Source of the DNA: an uncultured Candidatus Saccharibacteria bacterium | GTDB taxonomy: Bacteria; Patescibacteriota; UBA1384; 2-12-FULL-50-11; DASWYB01 | Direction: 5' to 3' | NCBI GenBank assembly: GCA_964372935.1 | Contig: CAYJRF010000001.1 | Span: 8,993-72,992, forward strand | DNA: 64,000 nt | Shown here: positions 23,938 to 56,480 of the stretch, in pieces | Position numbering within the stretch: the first letter of the stretch is position 1 | Layout of the letters: the number at the start of each line of letters is the position of its first letter | Made by a program: the position numbers and the translations under genes | Notes under the pieces: model-generated | Databases searched by the model: none | Seen by the model: the letters and a program-made list of their open reading frames with translations, nothing else | Told to the model about the DNA's origin: nothing

Positions 23938-24013
23938 TGGTCAGGGTGGTGGGACTCGAACCCACGACCACCAGACCCCCAGCCTGGTGCGCTACCAACT
24001 GCGCTACACCCTG
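23938..24013 (-). tRNA. tRNA-Pro (anticodon GGG)
   Basis: The reverse complement folds as a cloverleaf: acceptor CAGGGTG/CACCCTG, D-arm GCGC-AGTTGGTA-GCGC, anticodon loop CTGGGGG, T-arm GTGGG-TTCGAGT-CCCAC, discriminator A and an encoded CCA. Confidence 0.85.
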
Positions 24014-27158: not shown

Positions 27159-27233
27159 GCCACCTTAGCTCAGCGGAAGAGCAGCACTTTTGTAAAGTGA
27201 CGGTCGTCGGTTCGAATCCGACAGGTGGCTCCA
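27159..27233 (+). tRNA. tRNA-Thr (anticodon UGU)
   Basis: Cloverleaf with acceptor GCCACCT/AGGTGGC, D-arm GCTC-AGCGGAA-GAGC, anticodon loop TTTGTAA, T-arm GTCGG-TTCGAAT-CCGAC and an encoded CCA. The G27/A43 mismatch is also found in E. coli tRNA-Thr. Confidence 0.85.
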
Positions 27234-27330
27234 TAATTAGACTTTCCGATTTTTGACCGACGAACTGCTGGGCGGCACGAAGTGCCACCCGGTGGTTTTG
27301 TGGGGAAAATCCTCTTAGCTCGAACTTACT

Positions 27331-29094
27331 TTATGCCCCAACTCTATTTAAGTAATCCAAGCGATTTTTCTTGACGATCAAATTTTGTTGGGCCTTTATT
27401 AGCTCATCCTCAACCTTCCAAGGGCTCCCGGTTTTGTATGACTTCACCAGCTTTCCCAAGTAATCTTTCTCGCCATTATACCCGGTAAGTTCGTGGTCTA
27501 TTCTTAATATTTCATTCCTCAATTCCTTTTTCCGCCTGAATGAGAGCGCGCCGAGCTCATTAAGTTCTTCTTCGGCTTGAGCGCGTCGTGGTTCTAGATT
27601 TGCAATGGTGTTGTTTACTTCAGCAAGTCTCCTTTGGGCTTCATTTTCGCTATAAATATTTCCCCGTAGCGCTTGTTCTATAAAGACGTTCGCATCTTTT
27701 GCTTCAGATAATTTGACTTGAAGTTCTTGCGCTTCTGCCGCTACCTTAAAAATCTCGGCATTTAACTGGGCCTTTTCCTGTTCAATGGTCGCTTTTTCCC
27801 AATCTTGAATCGCTTTCATATCTTTTCGAAACTGTGCTTGTGCTCTGTCTTTTGTGTTTTTATCAGCATCACGGGAAACTATTGCGCTACCCTCATAAGC
27901 GTTCAGTTCATACCTGCCCATGTCCTGGTCAAATGATCGCCGTGAGTCCTTACTAAACCGTTGACCCAAAATGGTATCGCGGGAAAATGTAAGTCCTGAA
28001 GCGCTGGCACGCAAAAAGTTTAAGGTCCCTAAATGTTGGCGGATATAGTCGCCAACTGCGGCATCATTTTGGGGGCTACCACCAAATTCCCGATCACCGC
28101 TCGCAAGTCCTAAAAATCCTGCGGTGCCAGCCATAGTGCCGTGTTTGCCGACCAAATTTTTTAACAAAACTCCGACATACTCGTCTCTTTTAAGACCAGC
28201 CAAACTCAAAGGACCGCTTTCCGCTCCACCACCAGCTTGAGATGCAACGGCTTGAGTAACTTCTCGCATAGCTCGTTCTCTTTCCTTGGGATCTTTGATT
28301 TTATTGAATCCGCGAGCTTCAAATTCCTCTGTCAAAAAACTCTGCACCACTTGCGACATTATTTCCGTCTCTTTTGGGTCTCTCCGAACTCCCCACATCG
28401 CACATTCAACCACATTATCCCTCATCTCGTTCTCCGCTTTAGCTTCAGCAAACAGGCGTTCAATCATGTAGGGGTTAGCTTCTATATCAGCAACTTGCGC
28501 GTTAAGGTCACCCATTCCCTCTAAAAGCTTTTGGTATCTTTGAATTTGCACATCGGAAATAGATTCGGCCTTCATTGTTTCGAGTTCTTGGGTTAGTTCT
28601 CGCAGAATTTTTTCCACCTCCGACTTTTTCCCTTGAGCCTGCTTGAAAGCCCCTTTTACTTCTTCGGCAATCTCTCGTTCTTCTCTGCTTGCCATTAGGG
28701 ATTGGATTTCTGTGAGTTGGCGTTCAATCTGACCAAATTCGCCTTGCGCTTTTTGGAGTTCTGCTTCTTTAGCCGTTTGACTTTCTCTGAGTTTTTCAGA
28801 GTTAGCAATTCTTTCCTCAATGTGATACGCTCTAAGTCTGTCAACTTCAGATTGAGACGATCTTAACCCCGCCAAAGCTGATTCTCTCGGCGCTATATCT
28901 TCCTTGGCGCGAGCTTGTAGCTCTTTTTGGTGTTGTTCTTCCGCCTCCTGTTCTCTTTTCGTTTCAACTGTTTCGGCGTCTTTTCTGGCTTGTGCCGCTC
29001 TTAATTCTTCTAAGCTCAATGTCTCTGGCTCAGTTTTTTCTTGCTCTGGTGGCGCCGCCTGCGGTGGTTGGTTGAATGGATTTTCCGTGCTCAT
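27331..29094 (-). CDS. Large acidic coiled-coil protein (hypothetical)
   Basis: 587 aa, extremely E/K/Q/R-rich with heptad-like periodicity throughout and no enzymatic motifs. The gene is visibly lower in GC than its flanks. Confidence 0.6.
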   Translation of the reverse strand: MSTENPFNQPPQAAPPEQEKTEPETLSLEELRAAQARKDAETVETKREQEAEEQHQKELQARAKEDIAPRESALAGLRSSQSEVDRLRAYHIEERIANSEKLRESQTAKEAELQKAQGEFGQIERQLTEIQSLMASREEREIAEEVKGAFKQAQGKKSEVEKILRELTQELETMKAESISDVQIQRYQKLLEGMGDLNAQVADIEANPYMIERLFAEAKAENEMRDNVVECAMWGVRRDPKETEIMSQVVQSFLTEEFEARGFNKIKDPKERERAMREVTQAVASQAGGGAESGPLSLAGLKRDEYVGVLLKNLVGKHGTMAGTAGFLGLASGDREFGGSPQNDAAVGDYIRQHLGTLNFLRASASGLTFSRDTILGQRFSKDSRRSFDQDMGRYELNAYEGSAIVSRDADKNTKDRAQAQFRKDMKAIQDWEKATIEQEKAQLNAEIFKVAAEAQELQVKLSEAKDANVFIEQALRGNIYSENEAQRRLAEVNNTIANLEPRRAQAEEELNELGALSFRRKKELRNEILRIDHELTGYNGEKDYLGKLVKSYKTGSPWKVEDELIKAQQNLIVKKNRLDYLNRVGA

Positions 29095-29233
29095 ATTTAT
29101 ATGGTTTATTAATTGACTTTTTTATACTAGCATAAAACAAAGTCAACAAGCTACTTGTTAACAATTTCCGTCACAGCAAAAAAGCGAGGACGGCTCGGCA
29201 TACCTCCCCCTAACCCCCTCCTGTCGAGCCGTT

Positions 29234-29521
29234 GTGAAAATTTTGGGAGGGGTTCATGTGTCAACAGAAACAGCTCAACCAGTCGAATTGCCATCGGAAT
29301 CTCCTGAAGAAAACCCTCCTGCGACGGAAGTAAAAAAGGAGTTGCCTCAATTAAGTCCGCCTGATAATAAAGGGTGGTGGTTTCACCATTTGCCAGACGG
29401 TGGTAAGCATTCTGACAAATTAAGCAGGATGGATAGGCGCAATTATGATGCCGGAGAGCGAATCAACGTTCATTGTCAGTCATGTCCCGACAATCCGTTG
29501 GTTGGTTATTTACAAAAATAA
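29234..29521 (+). CDS. Small hypothetical protein
   Basis: 95-aa ORF in a low-GC intergenic stretch with no recognisable motifs; coding status uncertain. Confidence 0.25.
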   Translation: MKILGGVHVSTETAQPVELPSESPEENPPATEVKKELPQLSPPDNKGWWFHHLPDGGKHSDKLSRMDRRNYDAGERINVHCQSCPDNPLVGYLQK

Positions 29522-29724
29522 TTAATATATATATGTATCGACGAATTACCAGAACAATATAAAAAGGATAATTGACGCTGAGGGCAGATTTAGAAGAAAA
29601 AATCGGGTGGGAGCAAAATCAGAATCGCAGACAAGACTTTTCTGTAGTGGGGCAGCTTCCGTAGGACAGGAATTTTTGATAAAGTAAGGTTCGAGCGAAG
29701 TCATAAAGATACTCCATAAGACCG

Positions 29725-29812
29725 GCTGGGGTAGTCTAAGCGGTCAAAAGCGGTAGACTGTAAATCTACTGGCATTATGCCTTCGGGGGTTCGAATCCCT
29801 CCCCCAGCACCA
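29725..29812 (+). tRNA. tRNA-Tyr (anticodon GUA), long variable arm, anomalous D-arm
   Basis: Acceptor GCTGGGG/CCCCAGC, perfect anticodon arm GTAGA-CTGTAAA-TCTAC, variable arm GGCA-TTA-TGCC, T-arm GGGGG-TTCGAAT-CCCTC and an encoded CCA. The D region (GTCTAAGCGGTCAAAAGCG) does not form a canonical stem and contains a direct AGCGGT repeat. Confidence 0.7.
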
Positions 29813-30031
29813 CGTAGTAACTTTATCGGAATTGACTGCTCCGCGCGGGCTGGCAAATTTTTGAGCGGCGACTTATCAAAAATGATGTAAGGAAGGCGTC
29901 GCCAATCGCAGTGGCCCCATCTGCCGATTTATTTATTGAGAAACCAAGTAACAAGTTTTTGATTCACAGATAAATGGTAGTTAATTTTGCCTAATTTGGC
30001 CAGCGTTCTTTGACCGCAGAATGCCCGTTAA

Positions 30032-32227
30032 TTATAACTTCTGCTTTTTCAGCATCAGGGCGTTTAACGCCACAATGACCGTGGATAGCGACATCAATAC
30101 AGCGGCAAGGGCCGGTTGAAGAAAAATACCTTTGAACGCCAGCACGCCCGCGGCGAGGGGAATGGCGACAACATTGTAGCCCGTAGCCCAAAAAAGATTC
30201 TGAATCATTTTGCCGTAAGTCAGGCGAGACAAGCGGATGATTTTGGGAATATCGCGCGGATCGTTTTTGACCAAAACAATGCCCGCCGATTCAATCGCCA
30301 CGTTAGTCCCCGCGCCGATTGCGATGCCCAGATCGGCTTGAGTCAGCGCCGGAGCGTCATTTATGCCGTCGCCCACCATGGCAACTTTTCGGCCTTTTGA
30401 TTGGAGCATTTTTACTTTCTGCGATTTTTGGCCGGGCAATACCTTGGCATAGTACTCATCAATGTCAAGCTCTTTCGCCACCCACTGAGCAACGTCTCGG
30501 CTGTCGCCGGTAATCATGGCAGTTTTAATGCCCATGTTGCGGAGCGATTTAATGGTCTCGCGCGATTCTTCGCGAATAATGTCGGCGAGAGCGATCGCGC
30601 CGAGGAGGGATTTTCCCTTGACGGCGAATATGATCGTTTTCCCTTGCGCCGAAAGCTGGTCAATTTTAGTTTTCGTTTGATCGTCAAGAGGCAATCCCAA
30701 GTCGGTTAGCAACGTTTGGCTGCCAACTAAAACCTCCAACCCGTCTACATTGGCTCGCGCCCCTTTTCCGGCTATCCGCTGAAAATTTCTTGCCGCGGAA
30801 AGTTTGAGATTTTGTTTGTTGGCTTCGGCAACGATGGCGCGGGCGATAGGGTGTTCCGACTGACGATCCACCGAAGCGGTATACCGCAGCACAGTCGCCT
30901 CGCTTTCTTTGCCCATGGGGATAATCGCCTCGACGCCGAACTCTCCCTTGGTGAGCGTTCCGGTTTTATCAAACAGCACGATGTCAATATTGCGTGCCGC
31001 TTCAAGCGCCAACCGTTGTTTGACCAAAAAACCGTTCTGGGCCGCTTTAGTGGTCGAGATTGAAGCCACTAAGGGAATTGCCAACCCGAGGGCGTGAGGG
31101 CAAGCAATCACCAGCACGGCCACCATCCGCTCGATGGCAAACACCGGGTCCGCCAAGATAAGCCAGCTGGCTAATGTGATTGCGCCAACGGCGACGGCGA
31201 CGACAGTAAGGTAAAAGGCGGCTCTGTCGGACAATATTTGCAAGCGCGATTTGGAACTTTGGGCTTCGGCAACAAGACGCATTACCCCCGCCAAAAAAGT
31301 TTTCTCGCCAATGTTGGTGACTTTTATTTTGAGGGTGCCATCGCCGTTTATCGCTCCGGCGATCACGGCGCTCTCTGGTTTTTTGGGCACCGGTTTGGAT
31401 TCACCGGTGGCGATTGACTCGTTAACGTCGGAGATACCCTCCACCACAACTCCATCTGTCGGAATTTTTCCCCCGGGTTTTACCATCACTATGTCGCCAC
31501 TTTTAACATCAGCAAGGGGAATAATTCGCGTCTTGTCGCCTTGGATAATCTCCGCTTGATCGGGCAAGATCTTTGACAGCTCTTTTAAGGCGCCTTGGGC
31601 GTTCGAGACTGCCCGCATTTCCATCCAGTGTCCAAGAAGCATGATTGTGATCAGCGTCGCCAGTTCCCAAAAAAGAGTTTCCGTGCCTCCCGAAAGAATA
31701 GTGTAAACGCTGTAAATGTAGGCAACGGAGATGGCCAAGGAAATGAGCGTCATCATGCCGGGCAGTTTGGCTTGTAATTCCCGTCCGGCCGCGGCGATGA
31801 ACATCCAACCGCCATAGAAAAAAATGACCGAAGCGAGGATAAACGGCACATAGGTCGAGCCGGGAAATGTTGGCGCGGTAAAGTTCACCAGCTCGCGGAC
31901 GATGTTCGAGTAAAGAATCACCGGAACGGAGAGAATCAAACTGACCCAAAACTTTGTCTTGAATATATTGGTCGAATGTCCCTTGTGTTTGTCAAAGTCG
32001 TCATGATGATGACGCGTCTGTGGTTTGGCGGCAGGTACAAGCTGCATGCCACATTCCGGGCACTGCCCGTGGCTTTGACGACGAATTTCGGGATGCATGG
32101 GGCAGATGTATGTTTGCACTGGTTCGGGCATAATATCTTTCAGCGACTGGCTAGCCGCGACATTGAGCGTCGCGCGACGTTTTCCGGTGAAGCCGTTGGT
32201 TTGTTGAATTTGAGCCGCATCAACCAT
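30032..32227 (-). CDS. Heavy-metal P1B-type ATPase, CopB-like (CPH motif)
   Basis: DKTGTLT phosphorylation motif, TGES and GDGINDAP motifs and a CPH motif in TM6. The N-terminal His-rich stretch and CPMHPE...CPECGM metal-binding domain are also present. The true start may be internal, at MPEPVQ... Confidence 0.85.
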   Translation of the reverse strand: MVDAAQIQQTNGFTGKRRATLNVAASQSLKDIMPEPVQTYICPMHPEIRRQSHGQCPECGMQLVPAAKPQTRHHHDDFDKHKGHSTNIFKTKFWVSLILSVPVILYSNIVRELVNFTAPTFPGSTYVPFILASVIFFYGGWMFIAAAGRELQAKLPGMMTLISLAISVAYIYSVYTILSGGTETLFWELATLITIMLLGHWMEMRAVSNAQGALKELSKILPDQAEIIQGDKTRIIPLADVKSGDIVMVKPGGKIPTDGVVVEGISDVNESIATGESKPVPKKPESAVIAGAINGDGTLKIKVTNIGEKTFLAGVMRLVAEAQSSKSRLQILSDRAAFYLTVVAVAVGAITLASWLILADPVFAIERMVAVLVIACPHALGLAIPLVASISTTKAAQNGFLVKQRLALEAARNIDIVLFDKTGTLTKGEFGVEAIIPMGKESEATVLRYTASVDRQSEHPIARAIVAEANKQNLKLSAARNFQRIAGKGARANVDGLEVLVGSQTLLTDLGLPLDDQTKTKIDQLSAQGKTIIFAVKGKSLLGAIALADIIREESRETIKSLRNMGIKTAMITGDSRDVAQWVAKELDIDEYYAKVLPGQKSQKVKMLQSKGRKVAMVGDGINDAPALTQADLGIAIGAGTNVAIESAGIVLVKNDPRDIPKIIRLSRLTYGKMIQNLFWATGYNVVAIPLAAGVLAFKGIFLQPALAAVLMSLSTVIVALNALMLKKQKL

Positions 32228-32409
32228 AATTGTACCATCAACCTAGTCTTTTATCCCTTTTAACTGGCAACAGTGGCGTCGGCCGCGTCCGACTGGGCGC
32301 CAGCCTTTTTTTTTGGTACAATTTCCGTGATAATCGCTCTAGGTTGGCTTAATATGTCGAGCGATAAAAAATCGCCGGTTGACGACAGGCCGATGGAGCG
32401 ACCGCCCGC

Positions 32410-32484
32410 GCCCACGTAGCTCAGCGGTAGAGCAACTCCATGGTAAGGAGTAGGTCGGCGATTCAAATTCGCCCGTGGGCTCCA
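32410..32484 (+). tRNA. tRNA-Thr (anticodon GGU)
   Basis: Acceptor GCCCACG/CGTGGGC, D-arm GCTC-AGCGGTA-GAGC, anticodon arm ACTCC-ATGGTAA-GGAGT, T-arm GGCGA-TTCAAAT-TCGCC, discriminator T and an encoded CCA. Confidence 0.85.
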
Positions 32485-32503: not shown

Positions 32504-32665
32504 ATGGCCAAAACTAAAGTTCATCAAGCGATTATGGAGTGCTCGGTTTGCGGCGAGCGTAATTATCACACCAAACGCAACGTCAACAATATTAAGGAGC
32601 GTTTGGTGTTAAAAAAACATTGCCCAAAATGCCGCAAACATACCGAACACGCCGAAACTAAGTAA
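32504..32665 (+). CDS. rpmG: 50S ribosomal protein L33
   Basis: 53-aa ORF not in the supplied track: MAKTKVHQAIMECSVCGERNYHTKRNVNNIKERLVLKKHCPKCRKHTEHAETK, matching the L33 pattern with two CxxC pairs. RBS AGAAAGGAAA lies upstream. Confidence 0.8.
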   Translation: MAKTKVHQAIMECSVCGERNYHTKRNVNNIKERLVLKKHCPKCRKHTEHAETK

Positions 32666-32714
32666 CTGGCGATTCGGCGTTGGGCAAGGTTTGCCGTTTG
32701 TGATTGTGATTCAC

Positions 32715-32785
32715 GGGGGGTGCGCTGGGCGCGGGAGGGTCTCCAAAACCCACCTCGAAGCGTTCGATCCGCTTACCCCCTGCCA
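32715..32785 (+). tRNA. tRNA-Trp-like (anticodon CCA) with truncated D-arm; possibly a pseudogene or non-canonical tRNA
   Basis: Acceptor GGGGGGT/ACCCCCT (one G-U pair), canonical Trp anticodon loop CTCCAAA on a GGGT/ACCC stem, T-arm AAGCG-TTCGATC-CGCTT, discriminator G and an encoded CCA. Only 14 nt (GCGCTGGGCGCGGG) lie between the acceptor and anticodon stems, so the gene is 71 nt. The 3' end overlaps the start of repeat R1. Confidence 0.45.
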
Positions 32786-32830
32786 AAGAAACCTAGGAAT
32801 CGAACCATAAAAAGAGAACCGTCCCCAATT
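32780..32830 (+). repeat. 51-bp intergenic direct repeat R1, copy a
   Basis: ctgccaaagaaaCctaggaatcgaaccataaaaagagaaccgtccccaatt, repeated at 33374..33424 with a single mismatch. Confidence 0.9.
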
Positions 32831-32878
32831 CGAGAACAATTCGAGAAGCCATGTTCGAACATCCTCGACAATGGCCCC

Positions 32879-32917
32879 TAACCCAGTAAGCAGCAGAGCG
32901 GCTACTTTTTTGGTATA
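32879..32917 (+). repeat. 39-bp direct repeat R2 (hairpin plus T-run plus TATA-like box), copy a
   Basis: taacccagtaagcagcagagcggctacttttttggtata is identical at 34435..34473 and degenerate at 33519..33552. In all three copies it sits 20-25 bp upstream of an ORF start. It contains an imperfect hairpin AGCAGC-AGA-GCGGCT followed by T6 and GGTATA. Confidence 0.85.
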
Positions 32918-32937
32918 GTTGTTGAAACGGAGGTTGT

Positions 32938-33357
32938 ATGTCAGAGCATCTATCACCGAACGATGAATACGCAAATTGGACAGCTCCAGACCCTTCTCCA
33001 CAAAGCGAGCGTCCTGGCGGTGAATTACATACCCGGCCAATTCAAGGATCGGACGGACAGTGGCAGGATGGGTATGGCAATAGAATATCGGAAACAGAAG
33101 CTAGGGATATTGATTACGCAACCCGATTCTGGCGCCAGCAACCCGCAGGACAAAAGCAAGCAATGCAAGAAATAATTCAAAATCAGGTAGAATTGGGCAA
33201 ATTTAGCTTATTTGTTAGCCCATCGGGGATAAGCGAGGGAGATGAGGAAAAACTTTCTGCTTATCGTCTGTTAGCACGAGAAATGGGGTATGAGATTGGT
33301 TCGTTTCATTTTAACCCAAACGCTCACACAGTCACTGCCGAAATAAAAACATTCTAG
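32938..33357 (+). CDS. Hypothetical protein (cassette ORF 1)
   Basis: 139-aa acidic ORF with a good RBS (ACGGAGG) and no recognisable motif; followed by motif R3 (ctccacgatggcc) and repeat R1b. Confidence 0.45.
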   Translation: MSEHLSPNDEYANWTAPDPSPQSERPGGELHTRPIQGSDGQWQDGYGNRISETEARDIDYATRFWRQQPAGQKQAMQEIIQNQVELGKFSLFVSPSGISEGDEEKLSAYRLLAREMGYEIGSFHFNPNAHTVTAEIKTF

Positions 33358-33373
33358 CGTTCTCCACGATGGC

Positions 33374-33424
33374 CTGCCAAAGAAATCTAGGAATCGAACC
33401 ATAAAAAGAGAACCGTCCCCAATT
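33374..33424 (+). repeat. 51-bp direct repeat R1, copy b
   Basis: ctgccaaagaaaTctaggaatcgaaccataaaaagagaaccgtccccaatt; 50 of 51 bp identical to copy a. Confidence 0.9.
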
Positions 33425-33452
33425 GCCTTGCAATTGCCTTGCAATTGCCTTG
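33420..33452 (+). repeat. Tandem repeat, 3 x 11 bp (caattgccttg)
   Basis: Three perfect head-to-tail copies immediately after R1b. Confidence 0.9.
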
Positions 33453-33560
33453 GATTGGCGGTAACCGAATTACTATCTAACCGATACCCTTGCGGTAACC
33501 TTCTTTTCTATCTAATGCGAGTAAGCAGCATAGCGGTTGCTTTTTTGGTATTGTGCAAGA

Positions 33561-34376
33561 ATGATAAAAATTCAAGCGAGTGGTGAAATTCAACCATTAG
33601 ACATTGATGGCTATATTATTAATACCAGCTCTCTGGATAAGATAGTTCCACCTTGGAAAGAAGCAATTGAAGACGTTTGCCAGACATATATCAAAAAGTT
33701 TGGTGAGGGGCTACATAGCATTTATTTGCGTGGTTCGGTTCCTAGTGGAAAAGCAATAGATGGAATCTCGGATTTAGATTCAATTGTGATTATTAAAGCT
33801 GATCATTCAGACTCGGTTGACCTTTCGTGGTTTAATGATTTTGCTGAGACGCTCATTATTAAATATCCATACGTGAGCGAACTTGAATTACTATGGGTAA
33901 ACTATGCTAGCTTACTCAACCCGGATAAGTTAACAAATGTACGTATCCAGCTGGCTATCTATGGCTTGTGCATCTATGGCGAAGACATTATTCCACAGTT
34001 ACCAAAATTTAAACCAGGACGCGACACTATTATTCATGCGCCATGTATTGATAAACAGATTGATGAAGCGATCGAAAAGATTAAACTGCGCGACACATCG
34101 GATGGGGTAAAGGGAGCTTGTACTTGGATCATGAAATCATTTCTACGAGTGGGTTGTGAGCTGGTGATGGAACGCGAACATGTATATACGCGCGACCTTT
34201 ATTGGTGTTATAAGTTATTCGCTCAATACTATCCAGGTACAGCAGATGCTATGTATCAGGTGCTCGATTATGCACTTAACCCAATTGACGATCGAGAAAA
34301 GTTAAGCTCATTTGTAAAAGATTTTGGATTTTGGCTTAGTCAAGAAGTAAAAGCACAAGGATTGGTTAGAAAATAG
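33561..34376 (+). CDS. AadA/ANT(3'')-ANT(9)-like nucleotidyltransferase (Pol-beta NTase domain plus DUF4111-like C-terminal domain)
   Basis: N-terminal NTase motif LRGSVPSGKAIDGISDLDSIVII (G[GS]...DhD). The C-terminal region (VKGACTWIMKSFLRVG...DLYWCYKLFAQYYP) parallels the AadA C-terminus (VVLTLSRIWYSAVTG...ADWAMERLPAQYQP). The gene is strongly low-GC and begins at ATG 33561; the computed ORF begins at an upstream TTG. Confidence 0.6.
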   Translation: MIKIQASGEIQPLDIDGYIINTSSLDKIVPPWKEAIEDVCQTYIKKFGEGLHSIYLRGSVPSGKAIDGISDLDSIVIIKADHSDSVDLSWFNDFAETLIIKYPYVSELELLWVNYASLLNPDKLTNVRIQLAIYGLCIYGEDIIPQLPKFKPGRDTIIHAPCIDKQIDEAIEKIKLRDTSDGVKGACTWIMKSFLRVGCELVMEREHVYTRDLYWCYKLFAQYYPGTADAMYQVLDYALNPIDDREKLSSFVKDFGFWLSQEVKAQGLVRK

Positions 34377-34434
34377 GTTCGAACATTGTCGGCGATCCTC
34401 CGCCGTTAAAACTTCGGAAGGACAAGTGGTCTGA

Positions 34435-34473
34435 TAACCCAGTAAGCAGCAGAGCGGCTACTTTTTTGGTATA
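34435..34473 (+). repeat. 39-bp direct repeat R2, copy c
   Basis: Identical to 32879..32917; ends 8 bp before the ATG of the next ORF. Confidence 0.9.
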
Positions 34474-34481
34474 ACACGGAC

Positions 34482-34949
34482 ATGGAAGGTGATCCCAAAA
34501 AACCGATTCCAATTTTATATGACACGTATCTTGCGGTTATTAAAAATGGCGTCGAATCAAAAATGTTCCGTCATTTTTATGCTTATGTCGACGGCAACAA
34601 GGTGGATATTGTAAAGGGCGGGGAGTTAGCTTGTGGTTTTTTTGTTTCGTTCGTCCTCCACAATTTTAAGCTAATAGGCGAGCCTCATTTAACTGTGGCC
34701 GGCACAGAGAAAGATCTCCAAGAATTGGGTTGGCAAGAAATTGGTAGAGATAATCTTAAAGAAGGATGTGTCTTAATCTGGCAGAGTGAGGCCTCTGATG
34801 CCGACGCCCACAAACATATTGGATTCTATATCGGGAACGACCGAGCAGTGAGTACAGATTCCAAGCTGGGAGTTGTTTCCGAGCATCACTTTACTTTTAA
34901 TAACAGCCGACCAATCGAAAAGGCGTATTGGTTCGAACAATTGAAATAA
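34482..34949 (+). CDS. Putative papain-fold hydrolase, NlpC/P60-like (cassette ORF 3)
   Basis: Cys in GGELACGFFVSFV, then about 60 aa later HIGFYIGNDRAVS...EHH, resembling the NlpC/P60 Cys...H(V/I)GIY(I/V)GNG...H arrangement. Low GC; followed by motif R3 (ctccacgatggcc). Confidence 0.35.
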   Translation: MEGDPKKPIPILYDTYLAVIKNGVESKMFRHFYAYVDGNKVDIVKGGELACGFFVSFVLHNFKLIGEPHLTVAGTEKDLQELGWQEIGRDNLKEGCVLIWQSEASDADAHKHIGFYIGNDRAVSTDSKLGVVSEHHFTFNNSRPIEKAYWFEQLK

Positions 34950-35077
34950 GAATCGTCCTAGCGGCCTCCACGATGGCCCGGTAAAGAAAAAAGCGGCTCA
35001 TGGCCTTAGGGGGCTTGCCGAGATGATGATTCAAGAATTACGCTAAAAACTAATGACATCCCACCAAAAGAAGCAAA

Positions 35078-35109
35078 TTACAATTAATACTTATTACAAT
35101 TAATACTTA
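35078..35109 (+). repeat. Tandem repeat, 2 x 16 bp (ttacaattaatactta)
   Basis: Two perfect copies in the AT-rich spacer after the cassette array. Confidence 0.85.
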
Positions 35110-35128
35110 CAATGCCGCCGCGACGGCG

Positions 35129-35404
35129 TTGGCAAAAAAATATCGCGCTATCGGTTCTCGCCGACAAGACGTCGAACGGGTGATGAATTACGTCAGCGCG
35201 ACCAATCCGAAAGTAGTCGAGTTGGGCAGTGCAGGTCAAGTGGTTGATGGGGCTCGGCATTGTTCCGAATGCGGGATGCTCCTCGCCTTCGGAAGAGACT
35301 TTTTTCCGCTAGGCGAGTCGGTGCCGCTTGCGCGCAGCAGTCCTCCGGCGGGAAAGCGACGGGCGAAGGCAGAAAAGAATATGCCCACGGACGACGACGA
35401 CTGA
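35129..35404 (+). CDS. Hypothetical protein (TTG start), doubtful
   Basis: 91-aa ORF with a non-ATG start and a single CxxC pair. GC jumps sharply here; coding status uncertain. Confidence 0.2.
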   Translation: MAKKYRAIGSRRQDVERVMNYVSATNPKVVELGSAGQVVDGARHCSECGMLLAFGRDFFPLGESVPLARSSPPAGKRRAKAEKNMPTDDDD

Positions 35405-35690
35405 TGCCGCGCCCGTAACAACCGACAGCCTGCGGCTCGCTCGCGCCCGCTATTCATCAAACAAGAATATTGGGCGTTTTTTTAAATTTTTAGGAAAGTG
35501 ATTGTCGAAAACGAGGCGGGAGGCACTCGCCTATCTGTTCATGACTCCCCCCTTTCGCCTAAAGGTTACCAAAACGAGGGGAGTTTGTCATGGTAGAGTT
35601 GCGGTCTTTCCCCTTTGCTCGTGGGGCGTGTCTTGCTTCTCGGTTGACGACAATCCGGACTTAAAAAGTCCTTGCCGGGCGACGGGCAAG

Positions 35691-35712
35691 AAAAAAGGAG
35701 CCGATTGGCTCC
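35691..35712 (-). terminator. Rho-independent terminator for the 35730..36170 minus-strand gene
   Basis: On the minus strand: ggagcc-aatc-ggctcc followed by TTTTTT, about 20 nt after the stop codon. Further small hairpins lie beyond (ggactt-aaaa-agtcc, cttgccg-ggcga-cgggcaag). Confidence 0.6.
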
Positions 35713-35729
35713 AAAGTGCCGTATGTCCT

Positions 35730-36170
35730 TTACGGAGCGGGGCGTAGGGCGCGGATCGCCGCAGTTACGTCTCTCACTCCCCGCCGAAACCACGGTTGAC
35801 CGAAGAAGGGCGGTCGGAAGCGTCCTTTCCGGTAAAGAAAGCGAACAGGTGATCCGCCATTGCCGGCGATCAGGATCGGCCCGGTTCCTCCCGCGACGGG
35901 ATAGACATCGATAACATTGCCCATCGCGGTGCGCATCCACGAGTGTTGGTAGTTGGGATAATAGTAGCCGTCAACTACCTCAAGGTTGTGGTCTCGATAC
36001 ACGCGAGCGATGGCGCGAACAAGCATATGGCACGAAACTTCTTGAGGGTATCCCCACTGATCGCGCTTTATGCTTATTTCCGGAAGCTGCTCTAAGATTG
36101 CAGCCAATTCCGTGACTAACTCACGTTCAGCAGCGGTTACCGCCCCCTCACGGACAGCGTAGGGTACCAT
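35730..36170 (-). CDS. Hypothetical protein
   Basis: 146 aa with GAGGAGA RBS upstream of the ATG, GC-rich, no recognisable motif (contains GNGGSP and YYYPNYQHSW). Confidence 0.5.
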   Translation of the reverse strand: MVPYAVREGAVTAAERELVTELAAILEQLPEISIKRDQWGYPQEVSCHMLVRAIARVYRDHNLEVVDGYYYPNYQHSWMRTAMGNVIDVYPVAGGTGPILIAGNGGSPVRFLYRKGRFRPPFFGQPWFRRGVRDVTAAIRALRPAP

Positions 36171-36430
36171 GACTTTCTCCTCGTAAAGATCGTGCGATAA
36201 AGATCGCCTGCAGTATACATCGACACGACTGCTAGTGAAAACATGCGGTAGGTGGGGGAACTTGCCGATTGGCAGAGGAGGATATTTGCTGGTCAGGCAG
36301 TCTAACTGGAGGATACGGAAAATTATCTGGCCGCTCTCCGCTCTATCTCGACACCGAAATAATTCTGAACCGAGAAAAGCGGCGGTTCCATCAGATAGTC
36401 ATCCACCTGATGGAACCGGCTGATTAACAT

Positions 36431-36727
36431 CTAGCCGCCGCTGGGGTGGCGAGATGTCAAGAGGTAGTTGTGGGCGGTTTTCAACGCCCACACGCCGAGA
36501 ATCGGTGTCACCAAAAACATCCAGGCCACGAACATGATGCACGGCACTGGTGGGGGCGTGATCCCACCGAACACCGCCTGCTTCGCCAGCATCGCCGCCT
36601 GCCATGAGGCGGCGAGAACGGTGAACATACTGGCCGCCAGGATACCATCATCCTTTCGTGCCACCCCGCATATCAGCAGGGCGCCGAAGGACAACACCAC
36701 GAGGTGCATGGCCAGAAGGCCGAACAT
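36431..36727 (-). CDS. Small membrane protein (3 predicted TM helices)
   Basis: Start at ATG 36727 preceded by GAGGAGGAGGGG; hydrophobic helices MFGLLAMHLVVLSFGALLICGV, ILAASMFTVLAASWQAAML and IMFVAWMFLVTPILGVWAL. Confidence 0.5.
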   Translation of the reverse strand: MFGLLAMHLVVLSFGALLICGVARKDDGILAASMFTVLAASWQAAMLAKQAVFGGITPPPVPCIMFVAWMFLVTPILGVWALKTAHNYLLTSRHPSGG

Positions 36728-37024
36728 TTCCCCTCCTCCTCTCATCACACCGACCGATTTAGACCGGACTGCAGACAACATAGCATAAAAGGTATATTTT
36801 GTCAAGTGTCTGCATGCGTCCATAACATATGAGATTTTTGGTCATACACATGAACGGCAGTACTCGCTCCGGTTCGCACGCGGTGTTGTACTGCGCCGCG
36901 ATGTGCGCTAGAGTTTAGGCATGATTTCAAATCATAAATTAATGACTTGGTCGAGTTTTATCAAAGCGTTGTTTTATTTTTCTGTCTGAGAGGGCAGATT
37001 TTTTGTTTGAAAAAGGGGGAAGGG

Positions 37025-37624
37025 ATGAGTGATATGCTTGTTGAGCTGCTCGGGGTTGAACGAGAACAGGCAAGACAACGACTGCGTTGCGACGGCGTAG
37101 TGGTCGTGCGAAACGTCTTTAGTCAAGACGCCGCGACGGCGTTGGCCCACGAAGCGCAACGGCTGAAGTTTGAGCTTCAGCCGGCAGTTTACGGCTCGCG
37201 CAGTGTGCAGCAGGCGGTGGCCTGCGCCGATATCGCCCCGAGGGGTCGGCTGTGGGAGTTTGCCGACGCCGTGGAGATAGCTATGCAGAACATGGTTGGA
37301 GACGAAGCGATGACTGTGCCGCTCGGCTTCAACCGCCGCGTCGTTCAATGGTATCGCCCCGAGACTATCGGTATTGGGTCTCATCGCGACGAGAGTCGCT
37401 ATCGCAACCTTGTTGTCCTGTGCGGTTTGAGTGGCTATGGTCGGTTCAAGCTCTTCAGGGGGTCAAGCGGGGCGCTTTACCTCACCAGAAAGGTGGGTCC
37501 GGGCGACGTCGTGGTAATGATCGCGCCCGGATTTAACGGCCGTGACGATCGTCCGGTGCATGCCGTCGATCAAATTCAAGGAGAACGCTATGTTCTGGCG
37601 TTGCGTCGGGACGATCGGGCGTGA
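37025..37624 (+). CDS. Putative 2-oxoglutarate/Fe(II)-dependent oxygenase superfamily protein
   Basis: HxD...H arrangement (IGSHRDE ... PVHAVD) in a predicted beta-rich protein of about 200 aa; assignment by motif pattern only. Start at ATG 37025 with GGGGGAAGGG upstream. Confidence 0.3.
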   Translation: MSDMLVELLGVEREQARQRLRCDGVVVVRNVFSQDAATALAHEAQRLKFELQPAVYGSRSVQQAVACADIAPRGRLWEFADAVEIAMQNMVGDEAMTVPLGFNRRVVQWYRPETIGIGSHRDESRYRNLVVLCGLSGYGRFKLFRGSSGALYLTRKVGPGDVVVMIAPGFNGRDDRPVHAVDQIQGERYVLALRRDDRA

Positions 37625-37677
37625 GGAGAGTAATCATGGACCGGATCACAAACCGAGCCGTAACACCTTTATTTTTA

Positions 37678-37711
37678 CCACCCGTGGCGGTCGTCGGCGG
37701 GTGGTTTTTTT
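37678..37711 (+). terminator. Rho-independent terminator
   Basis: ccacccg-(13-nt loop)-cgggtgg followed by TTTTTTT, 55 nt after the stop of the oxygenase-like gene. Confidence 0.6.
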
Positions 37712-37814
37712 CTGGTTTACTAACCCACCTCGGGCGACGTTGGACGGCGGCCGTAACGCCCGGTGAGTTCGCCACTTGACGGCGGTGGGCGATGAAGAGT
37801 TACAATGAAAGCTG

Positions 37815-39398
37815 ATGAATCCCGAAAGCTCACCAAGCCCCGAAGACATATTAGCCCAGCAGGCCCGCTATGCCGAAGAGCGACGGTCGGAGGTCGCGAA
37901 TCAGGAGTTAACGCGCCGCTTTGACGACATGAAGTCCCAGCCGCGGCCCCCAGTTTCAACCGATAGGGAGTGGCAAAACCGCCACGCTCCGCCAAGTGAC
38001 GAAAGAAGCCGTACTGTTGCCGCCTTAGAGAACGTCCGGGCCAGCATTGCCGATCTGCCCGAGGGTTTAATCAACCCGGCAACACGCCAATATATTAAAA
38101 GTTTGGAGACTCGATTGGCCGAACTGCCCGAGCCAACGGTGGCGAGTCCGGCGCGGGAGGGTGAGCCGTATCCGCAGCATCCCTTGAAAGAAGAAGCCGA
38201 AATTGGCGCCGACAAGCTGAACGAATTATACCAGCGCGAGAGAGAGGTGATCGAGCAATTCGGTACGGATCTGGCCCGATCCACTGACTTGGAGTCTCGA
38301 CAGCGAGATCGCCCCCGCTACGATTGGCGTAAGAATTTGATACTCGAGTATCTTTTACCCGACTTTATTCTTAGTTGCGAGCGGCGGGCGATGGAAGAAC
38401 GGGGGGATGATGTTCCCTCGTCGGCCACCCATGCTCTGGAGACGGTGGAGCAGACGCTCAGGAAGTTATCTGACCAACTCGATGAATCGCGTAGGTCCCC
38501 AACCTCAAGTGGTGATTATGTTCCCTATCTCTCCGACAGATTAGGGTCGCAGGAAGGTTCGCAGGCGTACGACGTCTTCCTGCTGACTCTGTTATGCGAC
38601 AATCGTGGGTCCAAGGGGAGTCATGTCCCTACCTACCGCGAGGGCGATCAGAAAAATCGGGTTCGTTATTATCGTCCCAGGGAAAGGGAGCATAGCGGCT
38701 ACTTTCGCCCAGAGGAGCATTTAGGATCGCTTACGCCTCTCTTTACCAGGCACCCGGAAGTGGGGCGGCTGGTGGCGCTTGTCCAAGAAGCGGAACGCCG
38801 GACGGGCGAGCGAGATTCGTTCTTCGCGCCCTCTGTTGAGCCCCGCTATGCCATAGTGGAAGATGACGCCGTAATGCTCGATAATCTGGTGAGGCGTTTT
38901 CAAGCCATGAACGCCGAACGGCTGGAGGAAATAGCCCGCCAAAGGGACCGCGTAACGACCCTGAAAGACGGTATCTTGCGCCTGGGAGAACTGTATCACT
39001 ACCTCCAGGAATTCGGACAAGCCCTCGAGAACAATCAACAGACTTTAGCCCAAGCTACGAGGGGTAGGCGGGAGATGGAGCTTGACTTCAACCACCTTTC
39101 TTTGCGCCGCCCAGAATTTTGGCAGTTTGCCAGGCGTCGGGAGTTAAACGTGGCGGAGGCGAATCTGGAAGAAAGTCGGCGTTGGGAAAACCAGTGTGCG
39201 GAAACGGTTCAAACCACCCAGGAGAAATCGGAAGCCATACGCCAAGAGTTCAATGACCTCCACGGTATGATAAAAAGAGAGTATGGGCTGTATTATTCGC
39301 GAAACGAGGTAGGGAAGGCCGATGATTTTTTGGAAACCGAAAACAGACGATTGACTGAGCTTGAAGGGTTTGTGGCGCATCCAATCGAGTCGGGCTGA
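37815..39398 (+). CDS. Large charged hypothetical protein
   Basis: 527 aa, R/E/D-rich, predicted mostly alpha-helical, no P-loop or other catalytic motif; GC-rich. Confidence 0.5.
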   Translation: MNPESSPSPEDILAQQARYAEERRSEVANQELTRRFDDMKSQPRPPVSTDREWQNRHAPPSDERSRTVAALENVRASIADLPEGLINPATRQYIKSLETRLAELPEPTVASPAREGEPYPQHPLKEEAEIGADKLNELYQREREVIEQFGTDLARSTDLESRQRDRPRYDWRKNLILEYLLPDFILSCERRAMEERGDDVPSSATHALETVEQTLRKLSDQLDESRRSPTSSGDYVPYLSDRLGSQEGSQAYDVFLLTLLCDNRGSKGSHVPTYREGDQKNRVRYYRPREREHSGYFRPEEHLGSLTPLFTRHPEVGRLVALVQEAERRTGERDSFFAPSVEPRYAIVEDDAVMLDNLVRRFQAMNAERLEEIARQRDRVTTLKDGILRLGELYHYLQEFGQALENNQQTLAQATRGRREMELDFNHLSLRRPEFWQFARRRELNVAEANLEESRRWENQCAETVQTTQEKSEAIRQEFNDLHGMIKREYGLYYSRNEVGKADDFLETENRRLTELEGFVAHPIESG

Positions 39399-39460
39399 AC
39401 CAAGGGGTGACGCGACACGGCCTAGAGGAGTTAAGAAACGTTCGCCGATCGTTTGAACCG

Positions 39461-39736
39461 ATGAAGAAAGGGAAAATGAAAATAGTTATCGGTTGGGCGT
39501 CGTCGATTTTTGTGATCACACTCTTTATGGGGACGCTCTATGTTGTTGTTTGGCAAGTGTGGCGACAGAGCGCCAACGACCCTCAAATTACTTTGGCCGA
39601 GAGACGAGTGGCGACTTTGGGCTGGATGATCGCCGGTTCGTGGTTGGTCGGAATTGTTGGCGTCTTGATCTGGGACGGGCTGTTGGCCCTCGCGAGACAA
39701 AACAGCTCCACGACTCCAGAGCGGCGCTTGGAGTAA
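39461..39736 (+). CDS. Small membrane protein (2 TM)
   Basis: MKKGKMKIVIGWASSIFVITLFMGTLYVVVW... and a second helix LGWMIAGSWLVGIVGVLIW; immediately downstream of the 527-aa gene. Confidence 0.4.
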   Translation: MKKGKMKIVIGWASSIFVITLFMGTLYVVVWQVWRQSANDPQITLAERRVATLGWMIAGSWLVGIVGVLIWDGLLALARQNSSTTPERRLE

Positions 39737-39821
39737 TGACGCGTCCTCATGCCACCAGTTATGACTGGCGAGCCGGAAACTTAAGTTGACACGGAGTGAT
39801 GTTTCGAGCCTAATTAAGGTA

Positions 39822-54814: not shown

Positions 54815-54868
54815 CGAGCGGCATGGATGTTGGTACAATTTACATGATTAAATGAGGTGGTGAATAAT

Positions 54869-55198
54869 ATGATTGCCGTGATTGAATCGGGCGGAAAGCA
54901 GTTCTGCGTCCAGCCGGGCGCGACCGTAAAAATCGATCGGATCGTCGCGCCAGCCGGGGAAACGATAACGTTTCCCGATCTTTTGGGCGGCGGCGTGATC
55001 ACTGCCACCGTCGTGGAGTCGCGCCTTGCCCCGAAAGTGCGCGTCGCGAAATTTCGTCCCAAAACCCGCTATCGTCGTTGGCGGGGTCATCGCCAGCCCA
55101 TAACCTTAATTCGGATTAGCGACCCAACGCCCGATACCTCGGCAAAGCGACAACCGACTCGGCGCGTTCCCCCCAAAACTGTCAAGGAGTTGAAGTAA
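54869..55198 (+). CDS. rplU: 50S ribosomal protein L21
   Basis: MIAVIESGGKQFCVQPGATVKIDRI... matches the L21 N-terminus (MYAVIxxGGKQ); start at ATG 54869. Confidence 0.75.
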   Translation: MIAVIESGGKQFCVQPGATVKIDRIVAPAGETITFPDLLGGGVITATVVESRLAPKVRVAKFRPKTRYRRWRGHRQPITLIRISDPTPDTSAKRQPTRRVPPKTVKELK

Positions 55199-55405
55199 AT
55201 GCGGTTTGTTGCCACGGGATTGAATTTCGTAGTAAATTATCTTCAGACAGCTTATCGCGAGTTTCGCCAAGTAACTTGGCCGACCCGCGACGCGGTCATG
55301 CGCTACACGGTTTTAGTTGTCGTGGCGGTTGTTGTCAGCGTCCTGATTTTAATCGCGTTTGATTACGGCATGCAGCAGTTGTCCAATCGTTATATTCTGA
55401 AATAA
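55199..55405 (+). CDS. secE: Preprotein translocase subunit SecE
   Basis: 68 aa with a single C-terminal TM helix and KVTWPT-like motif (VTWPTRDAV); immediately upstream of nusG. Confidence 0.75.
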   Translation: MRFVATGLNFVVNYLQTAYREFRQVTWPTRDAVMRYTVLVVVAVVVSVLILIAFDYGMQQLSNRYILK

Positions 55406-55415
55406 AAGGAGCTTC

Positions 55416-56033
55416 ATGGGTTCTTTTTTGACGGATCACGAATCTTTAGACCAATCAGACCAAGAATTGGTCACGGTTTCGTCATCGGAGAAACTGCTCA
55501 AACAAACTGGCCAGCGCGGATGGTACGCCATCCACACTAACACTGGCTACGAGGATCAGGTGGCCCAAAATCTGAAACAGCGAATAGAATCGTTCGAAAT
55601 GCAGGCGAAAATTTTTAATGTCATCGTGCCAAAAGAAAAAGAGATCGAAATCAAAAATGGCAAGCGTCGCGTGGTGGAAAAAAAAATCTTCCCTAGCTAT
55701 GTTTTGGTCGAGATGATCGTCACCGACGACTCGTGGTATGTCGTTCGCAATACCCCGAATGTGACGGGATTTATCGGTATGGGAGTTCGTCCGACGCCAA
55801 TGTCGGGGCCGGAAATTGACCGAATTTTTAAGCGAATGGGGGTAGAAGAGCCAAAATACAAAGTTGAACTGGCGATCGACGACCTTGTGCGCATCAAGGA
55901 CGGTCCGCTGAAGGGATTCGAAGGGAAAATTACTGAAGTTGATCAAGACAAGGGACGAGTGAAAGTCTTGGTCTCGATGTTTGGTCGAGAAACGCCCGTA
56001 ACCCTCGACTTTCTCCAGGTTGTCAAACTGTAG
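55416..56033 (+). CDS. nusG: Transcription termination/antitermination factor NusG
   Basis: NGN domain (WYAIHTNTGYE) and a C-terminal KOW motif (KDGPLKGFEGKITEV). Confidence 0.85.
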   Translation: MGSFLTDHESLDQSDQELVTVSSSEKLLKQTGQRGWYAIHTNTGYEDQVAQNLKQRIESFEMQAKIFNVIVPKEKEIEIKNGKRRVVEKKIFPSYVLVEMIVTDDSWYVVRNTPNVTGFIGMGVRPTPMSGPEIDRIFKRMGVEEPKYKVELAIDDLVRIKDGPLKGFEGKITEVDQDKGRVKVLVSMFGRETPVTLDFLQVVKL

Positions 56034-56057
56034 GCGCGGGAAGGCGGAGAATATTTT

Positions 56058-56480
56058 ATGGCAAAAGCGATCAAGCAAATTATTAAAGTTCAGGCTCCGG
56101 CTGGCCGAGCGGTGCCCGGCCAATCTCTTGGTCCCGTTCTTGGCGGGGCGGGAATTAATATTATGGAGTTTATCAGTCAGTTCAACGAACGCACCCGTGA
56201 AATGGGCGACACGGTCATCCCGGCCGTGATTACCGTATTTGAAGACAAAACGTGGCGCTTCGTAACTAAAACGCCACCGACTGCCGAGTTAATAAAAAAG
56301 TGTCTCGGCTTAGAGAAAGGGAGTTCTTCGGTCAAGAAACAGAAAATTGGTCGTCTCACCGCGGCTCAAGTGCGGGCGATCGCCGAAACCAAACTGCCCG
56401 ATGTCAACGCCCGCTCGCTTGAGGCGACAGAGGCAATGGTGCGAGGCACCGCCCGTTCCATGGGCGTGGATGTCGAGTAA
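56058..56480 (+). CDS. rplK: 50S ribosomal protein L11
   Basis: IKVQAPAGRAVPGQSLGPVLGGAGINIMEF matches the L11 consensus; follows nusG. Confidence 0.9.
   Translation: MAKAIKQIIKVQAPAGRAVPGQSLGPVLGGAGINIMEFISQFNERTREMGDTVIPAVITVFEDKTWRFVTKTPPTAELIKKCLGLEKGSSSVKKQKIGRLTAAQVRAIAETKLPDVNARSLEATEAMVRGTARSMGVDVE

Follow-up and report, generated by a model that had tools for sequence, protein, structure and literature searches.

A tRNA-Trp gene with a minimal D-arm next to rpmG in a CPR bacterium: possibly a natural non-canonical bacterial tRNA, possibly a fresh pseudogene

A 64-kb stretch of DNA (hereafter the window) carries, directly downstream of rpmG, a short gene with the anticodon loop of tRNA-Trp and only 14 nt in the place of a D-arm. 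Is it a tRNA that still works with a minimal D-arm, or is it what remains of a tRNA gene? An initial annotation of the locus set out these two alternatives, which we judge to be the right ones, and suggested in the second case that the remnant marks a breakpoint where rpmG and tRNA-Trp were separated from secE. The features on which the following discussion is based are collected in Table 1.

Table 1. Positions of the tRNA-Trp gene, its parts and its surroundings in the window
Feature	Position	Strand	Description and basis
tRNA-Pro	23938-24013	-	Rfam tRNA model
tRNA-Thr(TGT)	27159-27233	+	ARAGORN, Rfam tRNA model
587-aa ORF	27331-29094	opposite to tRNA cluster	no family match
tRNA-Tyr	29725-29812	+	Rfam tRNA model, 52.2 bits
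Heavy-metal P-type ATPase	30032-32227	opposite to tRNA cluster	
Promoter-like motif TTTTTGGTACAAT	32310-32322	+	upstream of tRNA-Thr(GGT)
tRNA-Thr(GGT)	32410-32484	+	ARAGORN; Rfam, 67.1 bits
rpmG	32504-32665	+	ribosomal protein L33, 53 aa, zinc-ribbon form; Pfam PF00471, E 4e-18
tRNA-Trp(CCA)	32715-32785	+	71 nt including encoded CCA; ARAGORN, own tRNA-Trp model
Acceptor 5' strand GGGGGGT	32715-32721	+	pairs with ACCCCCT 32775-32781; sequence, ARAGORN fold
Shortened D region GCGCTGGGCGCGGG	32722-32735	+	14 nt; sequence, ARAGORN, covariance model
Anticodon arm AGGGT / CTCCAAA / ACCCA	32736-32752	+	anticodon CCA at 32743-32745
T-arm AAGCG / TTCGATC / CGCTT	32758-32774	+	5 Watson-Crick pairs, G53-C61, canonical T-loop
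Discriminator G73 and encoded CCA	32782-32785	+	sequence
52-nt direct repeat	32779-32830 = 33373-33424	+	98% identical; copies flank a 139-aa ORF
rplU	54857-55198	+	
secE	55199-55405	+	
nusG	55416-56033	+	
rplK	56058-56480	+	
PMT-family glycosyltransferase	56489-57739	-	convergent

The acceptor stem of the gene has 7 bp, with a G.U at pair 1-72. This stem with the discriminator and CCA end, and the T-arm with its G53-C61 pair and T54-Psi55-C56-R57-A58 loop, are those of a canonical tRNA; a CCA end is encoded in all five tRNA genes of the window. The anticodon stem consists of 4 bp (GGGU/ACCC) beneath an unpaired A27.A43 and closes the 7-nt loop CUCCAAA. An extension of this stem by G26-C44, and further, is possible according to both the ARAGORN fold and a constrained fold. 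The variable loop is CCTCG. In the ARAGORN drawing there are a 3-nt spacer, a D stem of 3 bp (CUG/CGG) with a 4-nt loop and a variable loop of 4 nt, the A.A mismatch of the anticodon stem lies under one extra G-C pair, and the T-arm is perfect. The sequence is as the initial annotation had described it, with acceptor stem, CUCCAAA loop, variable loop, T-arm, CCA end and about 14 nt standing in for the D-arm. Work on E. coli and B. subtilis has established G73 and the 1-72 pair as determinants for TrpRS. The window gene carries the identity elements of tRNA-Trp, namely the anticodon C34 C35 A36, G73 and the 1-72 pair of its lineage.

ARAGORN calls the 71-nt gene as tRNA-Trp(cca) and places its anticodon at position 29. 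Among the 131 tRNAs that ARAGORN finds in 598 kb of fetched loci, none has its anticodon before position 33 and none is shorter than 72 nt. With the Rfam model RF00005 (gathering score 29 bits) the gene stays below threshold. The best model of the tRNA clan in an 81-nt scan is tRNA-Sec with 25.5 bits; since this is the top of the clan, the RF00005 score is at most 25.5 bits. The other four tRNAs of the window are all canonical and reach 52-67 bits with the Rfam tRNA model; the lowest of these four scores belongs to tRNA-Tyr, which has a non-standard D-stem pair. A covariance model of our own was built from 31 distinct tRNA-Trp genes collected in this analysis. It gives the candidate 34.0 bits (E = 6e-8), with the next non-tRNA match at 11.7 bits, and such an E-value places the tRNA-Trp match far beyond chance. 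Normal tRNA-Trp genes reach 69-87 bits under this model, but these are its training sequences. The same model scores the window's tRNA-Pro at 56.8 bits and its two tRNA-Thr genes at 41.7 and 39.7 bits, all above the candidate, so that only one of the five tRNAs in the window ranks below it. In the covariance alignment positions 8-9 and three positions of the D loop are treated as deletions, and the 27.43 pair is flagged as non-standard. Thus neither the Rfam model (below 29 bits) nor our own (34.0 bits) scores the gene as a normal tRNA; a normal score is what the initial annotation had named as counting against its proposal. The gene is certainly derived from a tRNA, with a D-arm that stands clearly apart.

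The D region is about five bases short, with 14 nt compared to about 18-19 nt in a canonical tRNA. U8, A14 and A21 are absent while GG is kept in the loop. Across the 31 aligned tRNA-Trp genes U8, G19 and A21 are invariant; in the window gene position 8 is a G, and A21 has no equivalent. What it contains is therefore not a canonical D-arm, which would have U8, a purine at position 9, a stem of 3-4 bp and a loop of 7-11 nt with A14, G18G19 and A21. Three short hairpins can be drawn from the 14 nt. The first, GCGC/GCGC with a UGG loop, abuts the acceptor stem directly; the second, CGC/GCG with a UGGGC loop, is the choice of the covariance model; and the third, CUG/CGG with a GGCG loop, is that of ARAGORN. 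Compared with a normal D-arm, U8/A9 are lost, the loop is shorter on both sides, and extra G residues lie 3' of the stem. A 4-bp hairpin by itself carries little weight as a sign of selection, since shuffling this G-rich 14-mer yields one in 9% of cases. The rest of the window was also considered as a source of filler DNA for the D region, and no second copy of it was found there.

The predicted folding is not that of an ordinary cloverleaf. When the acceptor, anticodon and T stems are enforced, the best fold has -29.6 kcal/mol and contains the GCGC hairpin, and the anticodon stem is lengthened to GGG.A.GGGU/ACCC.A.CCU. Left unconstrained, the sequence reaches its minimum of -32.3 kcal/mol in a rod-like fold that destroys the T-arm. 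In the ensemble the T stem has a probability of 0.01, compared to 0.64-1.0 in the window's other tRNAs. This value is weak evidence against function, because 3 of the 31 bona fide tRNA-Trp genes also lie below 0.1.

An odd D-arm in a single sequence could be an error, and a true D-arm of normal shape might have been spoiled by a sequencing error or by a chimeric join in a repeat-rich region. The source is indeed a metagenome assembly. The same organism is present in the Logan assemblies of ERR4904390 and ERR4904391; the contigs of these independent assemblies that were found through the ATPase and cysS stop at tRNA-Thr(GGT) or fall inside the window, and none of them spans tRNA-Trp or extends the source contig. 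Against an error of this kind, the D region lies outside the repeats, and a simple homopolymer indel would not account for its departure from a normal D-arm. The neighbouring genes are intact and in frame, and the flanks (rpmG on one side, the 3' half of the tRNA on the other) are contiguous and sensible. We regard an artefact as very improbable.

The organism can be placed by its proteins. The closest NusG homologues, with 80-88% identity, include proteins whose source names are Patescibacteria group and Candidatus Berkelbacteria, and the gene content (type IV pilus genes, DprA, a PMT-type glycosyltransferase, PBP1A) fits a CPR bacterium. Relatives also bear on the question of the breakpoint. 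In the window the rplU-secE-nusG-rplK block (54857-56480) lies 22.4 kb downstream of tRNA-Trp, and we confirm the coordinates of the initial annotation, which had placed rplU before secE-nusG-rplK and a convergent glycosyltransferase instead of rplA after it. Four relatives whose NusG is 80-84% identical (loci L099, L100, L101/L102 and L107) have the same order ileS-rodA-rplU-secE-nusG-rplK-convergent PMT. More fully, the order in relatives is prepilin peptidase, pilus genes, RNase H, ileS, rodA, rplU, secE, nusG, rplK and PMT; some have one to three small ORFs between rplK and PMT, and three of the four continue with dprA and topA. As in the window, rplA is absent after rplK in all four. In one of the four (locus L103, described below), nusG lies 60.7 kb downstream of tRNA-Trp on the same contig and strand, the corresponding distance in the window being 22.7 kb. 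The same rpmG...secE separation, which the initial annotation had proposed to look for in relatives, is therefore found there. It is an old, clade-wide feature with a variable stretch after tRNA-Trp, and being shared by relatives it is not a breakpoint made together with the odd tRNA. Furthermore, the separation coexists with a canonical tRNA-Trp in this one of the four relatives, so that the D-arm reduction is a separate, later event. The suggestion that a tRNA remnant marks the breakpoint is thus not supported.

The orthologue of the window gene was reached through holB. With an E-value of 1e-15, which proved too strict, the holB anchor search gave one usable relative, locus L103 on contig JAXOUH010034028.1, whose holB is 48% identical. 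Its gene order is PBP1A, tyrS, argS, a large ORF, tRNA-Pro, M50 peptidase, holB and a TPR protein, then tRNA-Thr(TGT), tRNA-Tyr, tRNA-Thr(GGT), rpmG and tRNA-Trp, which matches the window from 15.8 to 32.8 kb. The gene of the window is thus orthologous to the relative's tRNA-Trp and stands at a conserved place directly after rpmG. As a side observation, tuf is absent between tRNA-Thr(GGT) and rpmG in the window and is present there in an Armatimonadota locus (L001).

The relative's tRNA-Trp (L103 12402-12475) is normal, with 74 nt, a regular D-arm and a D region of 18 nt. Segment by segment it reads GGGGGCG TA GTTT AGTGGTA AAAT G CTAGA CTCCAAA TCTAG CGTC GGGGG TCCGATT CCCTC CGCCCCT G CCA. It shares with the window gene the site after rpmG, the CUCCAAA loop, G73, the CCA end and G1.U72, and both have a 7-bp acceptor stem, a 5-bp T stem and a canonical T-loop. 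In contrast to the relative's gene, the window gene has the 14-nt D region without U8, A14 and A21, a D loop of 3-5 nt and an open 27.43 pair. Because the syntenic orthologue has a normal D-arm, the shortening is derived and took place in the window's lineage. Concerning the first base pair, G1 is found in 2 of the 31 aligned tRNA-Trp genes and A1 in the other 29; the G1.U72 of this clade (window 32715/32781; L103 12402/12471; L053) replaces the A1-U72 usual in bacteria.

The five tRNAs of the window are 66% (Pro), 86% (Thr), 74% (Tyr), 77% (Thr) and 59% (Trp) identical to their counterparts in the relative. The two genomes are thus distant, and the D-arm change may be old or recent. By a manual count, eight stem pairs differ between the two tRNA-Trp genes and seven of the eight are still paired in both; the count lists 6-67, 7-66, 49-65, 50-64, 52-62, 28-42, 29-41 and 31-39, with 27-43 as the broken pair. 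The seven kept pairings indicate that selection on the stems has acted through most of the time since the lineages diverged. The short D-arm is seen in a single genome, which counts against function. An rpmG-anchored search of genome and metagenome contigs yields relatives of at most 67% identity from many phyla, and the tRNA-Trp genes at these loci are normal in 50 out of 50 cases. A search for rpmG homologues returned only the query itself, and exact look-ups of rpmG and of the first ORF of the window matched no record. In viral contigs scanned with a pattern of the anticodon and T arms, the only find was a phage tRNA array that is unrelated and carries a tRNA-Trp of normal shape.

How would such a gene be expressed? 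We presume that tRNA-Thr(GGT), rpmG and tRNA-Trp form one transcription unit, with tRNA-Thr(GGT) as the first gene. The promoter-like motif TTTTTGGTAYARY occurs only four times in 64 kb, always on the + strand and between 32310 and 34475, once before tRNA-Thr(GGT) (32310) and once before each of three small genes downstream. Directly upstream of the window tRNA-Trp this motif is absent, whereas the relative carries TAGGTATAAT immediately before its tRNA-Trp. In the window a weak terminator-like hairpin, GGCAAGGTTTGCC followed by GTTTGTGATT, stands at 32683-32695, after the stop codon of rpmG and before the 5' end of tRNA-Trp. As tRNA-Trp has no promoter motif of its own, its expression would need read-through from the tRNA-Thr-rpmG unit past this hairpin.

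On its 3' side the gene borders a repeat-rich variable region with a GC content of 0.47-0.48 compared to about 0.55. The overlap of the CCA end with a repeat, noted already in the initial annotation, is real: the last 7 nt of the tRNA, CCTGCCA, open the 52-nt direct repeat, and only these 7 nt are shared. Three small genes (139 aa, 279 aa and a weakly NlpC/P60-like 155 aa) lie within 32779-35000, each after a repeated intergenic module. These modules include the 52-nt repeat as well as a 39-nt repeat, which is present in three copies (32879, 33514 and 34435) and ends in the promoter-like TTTTTGGTATA; the terminator scan does not call the 39-nt repeat as a terminator, and it looks like a promoter-type motif. 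Intergenic tandem repeats are also found, CAATTGCCTTG three times at 33420-33459 and ATTACAATTAATACTT twice at 35077-35108. Downstream of tRNA-Trp the genes of the relative (L103 12480-20650) and of the window (32786-39800) are unrelated, and the length of the stretch differs by about 38 kb. The relative's stretch codes for small hypothetical proteins, RibD_C, DUF1579 and an acetyltransferase. Such differences resemble those at the site of a variable genomic island.

In this setting the gene could be a tRNA-like element with another role, either a signal for RNase P and 3'-end processing of the rpmG transcript or a recombination target of the cassettes. The 52-nt repeat that starts within the tRNA flanks the first downstream cassette, and cassette genes 1 and 3 are followed by sequences (CTAGCGTTCTCCACGATGGCCTGCCAAAGAAA and a 79% copy) with a faint likeness to the 3' end of this tRNA (AGCGTTC...CCTGCCAAAGAAA). 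However, no integrase or recombinase is found among the ORFs of 32.8-39.4 kb, and the 7 nt in common with the repeat are few. For the same two reasons the tRNA as an attB/attL integration site was rejected. Another role would also require a second tRNA-Trp and would make the perfect Trp anticodon loop and the G73-CCA end superfluous. It is the least probable of the explanations considered here.

Whether the cell depends on this gene is a matter of the genetic code and of copy number. The code was examined because D-arm mutations and 4-bp anticodon stems let tRNA-Trp(CCA) read UGA. TGA terminates 21 of the 54 long ORFs of the window, ileS, topA, nusG, rplK and PBP1A are full length under code 11, and UGG is used as in the standard code. 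On this basis a reassignment of UGA to Trp was rejected, as nothing points to it. Our tRNA-Trp model finds no second tRNA-Trp-like match in the 64-kb window, and the relative has one tRNA-Trp only in 41 kb. A survey of 42,109 genomes counted 38,615 tRNA-Trp(CCA) genes, i.e. less than one per genome (PMC13092985). A second copy in this genome is a priori unlikely, and the window gene is probably its only tRNA-Trp(CCA).

The strongest competitor of a working tRNA is a tRNA-Trp pseudogene that was recently inactivated by a complex D-arm lesion while a second, canonical tRNA-Trp elsewhere, e.g. on a mobile element, does the work. The failure with the Rfam tRNA model, the low rank under the Trp model, the loss of the invariant U8 and A21, the predicted preference for a rod-like non-cloverleaf fold, the lack of an own promoter motif (which the relative has) and the position bordering variable DNA that is rich in repeats and lower in GC all fit a pseudogene, and they also weigh against function. 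In addition, tRNA-Thr(TGT) and tRNA-Tyr, the two other tRNA genes of the cluster, are each followed by inserted DNA in this genome. In the relative, tRNA-Thr(TGT), tRNA-Tyr and tRNA-Thr(GGT) are spaced by 9 and 170 nt (L103 11599-12012), and in the window these three genes (27159-32484) are separated by two blocks of about 2.5 kb with one opposite-strand gene each. The GC content drops to 0.45 in these blocks, and no att-like duplications flanking them were found.

On the other hand, a pseudogene needs an unusual second tRNA-Trp, given the average of less than one gene per genome, the single match in the window and the single gene in 41 kb of the relative. The damage is restricted to the D region; outside it, 16 of 17 stem pairs hold and no conserved loop base is lost. 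Also, the D region shows several independent changes and not one deletion; confined as they are to 14 of 71 nt, they fit remodelling under selection better than neutral decay. Function is further favored by the orthologous site, by the intact identity elements and EF-Tu/RNase P domain, by the encoded CCA end that the other four tRNA genes also have, and by the fact that tRNA-Trp(CCA) is usually single-copy in bacteria and that this organism uses UGG. It is also favored by the precedents, described below, for an open 27.43 pair and for the acceptance of a D-arm-less tRNA in E. coli. To the reading that the gene is an orthologous tRNA-Trp with a remodelled minimal D-arm, still in use, we give about an even chance, judging from its sequence and context. 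It is favoured over the recent pseudogene, which we consider less probable and yet a serious contender.

A working tRNA could arise and be used as follows. In this lineage the D-arm would have been remodelled to a short G+C-rich hairpin of 3-4 bp with a loop of 3-5 nt that contains GG. The U8/A9 connector would have been lost or changed, and pair 27.43 at the top of the anticodon stem would have opened. The gene would be co-transcribed with tRNA-Thr(GGT) and rpmG, and the tRNA excised by RNase P and a 3' nuclease. TrpRS may then charge it via the intact identity elements (anticodon CCA, G73 and acceptor stem), and EF-Tu may carry it via the acceptor/T-arm domain, which is intact. The D hairpin might stack on an anticodon stem that is possibly extended and so substitute for the core that a normal D-arm provides, comparable to the reduced-D-arm tRNAs of animal mitochondria. 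The present analysis shows the anatomy of the gene, its orthology and synteny, the derived nature of its D-arm and the age of the split between rpmG and secE, and from these we infer expression, folding, charging and use in translation, as well as the lack of a second copy. Somewhat more tentatively, the gene may encode the sole working tRNA-Trp of the organism and the first natural bacterial tRNA of a minimal-D-arm, non-cloverleaf type, which might also decode UGA to some extent in a genome where UGA still serves as a stop codon, since changes in the D-arm and anticodon stem of tRNA-Trp are known to relax the reading of the third codon position. In short, the gene may encode the first non-canonical tRNA of a bacterium known from nature, or it may be a fresh pseudogene, in which case the finding is an ordinary one.

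tRNAs with a reduced D-arm are familiar from mitochondria. In animals, tRNA-Ser(AGY), tRNA-Ser(UCN) and the nematode tRNAs have a shortened D-arm and connectors and keep the acceptor/T domain, like the window gene (PMC7609411). A lengthened anticodon stem may serve as compensation in both; for the window gene it is suggested by the predicted folds. The mitochondrial tRNAs are organellar and work with co-evolved factors, whereas the window gene is bacterial and stands beside four canonical tRNAs in the same window; it also retains a short hairpin with GG where the mitochondrial counterparts have a bare connector.

A closer bacterial setting is provided by the engineered 'mini HisT' of E. coli, which likewise has no normal D-arm (PMC11551756). 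HisRS, EF-Tu and the ribosome of E. coli accept this D-arm-less tRNA, and the same study states that a D-arm of this kind is not known from any bacterial tRNA in nature (PMC11551756). Mini HisT is artificial, acts as a His suppressor and needed a pnp mutation for its stability (PMC11551756), whereas the window gene is natural and has Trp identity. If the window gene is functional, a normal bacterial translation apparatus tolerates a minimal-D-arm tRNA-Trp in the wild.

A second comparison is with variants of tRNA-Trp itself. A 4-bp anticodon stem is present in 8.9% of bacterial tRNA-Trp(CCA) genes, the function of which was inferred from conservation and expression (PMC13092985). Only tRNAs whose anticodon lies at positions 33-37 were retained in that survey, and the window gene, with its anticodon at position 29, would drop out of it. 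If functional, it would mean that surveys which discard low-scoring or off-register tRNA genes may miss real tRNAs and misread the gap as genome incompleteness. The 'Blastocrithidia-like' 4-bp-stem tRNA-Trp(CCA) has an open 27.43 pair and a 7-nt loop in common with the window gene, and the Hirsh G24A suppressor is, like it, a tRNA-Trp with an altered D-arm; in both cases, the D-arm mutation and the 4-bp anticodon stem, tRNA-Trp(CCA) becomes able to read UGA (PMC13092985). In other respects the window gene differs from the UGA-reading 4-bp-stem type, with its off-register anticodon and with UGA as a frequent stop codon in its genome. A functional gene would thus be a natural test case for the control of UGA misreading by the D-arm of tRNA-Trp, next to the Hirsh suppressor and the 4-bp-stem tRNA-Trp.
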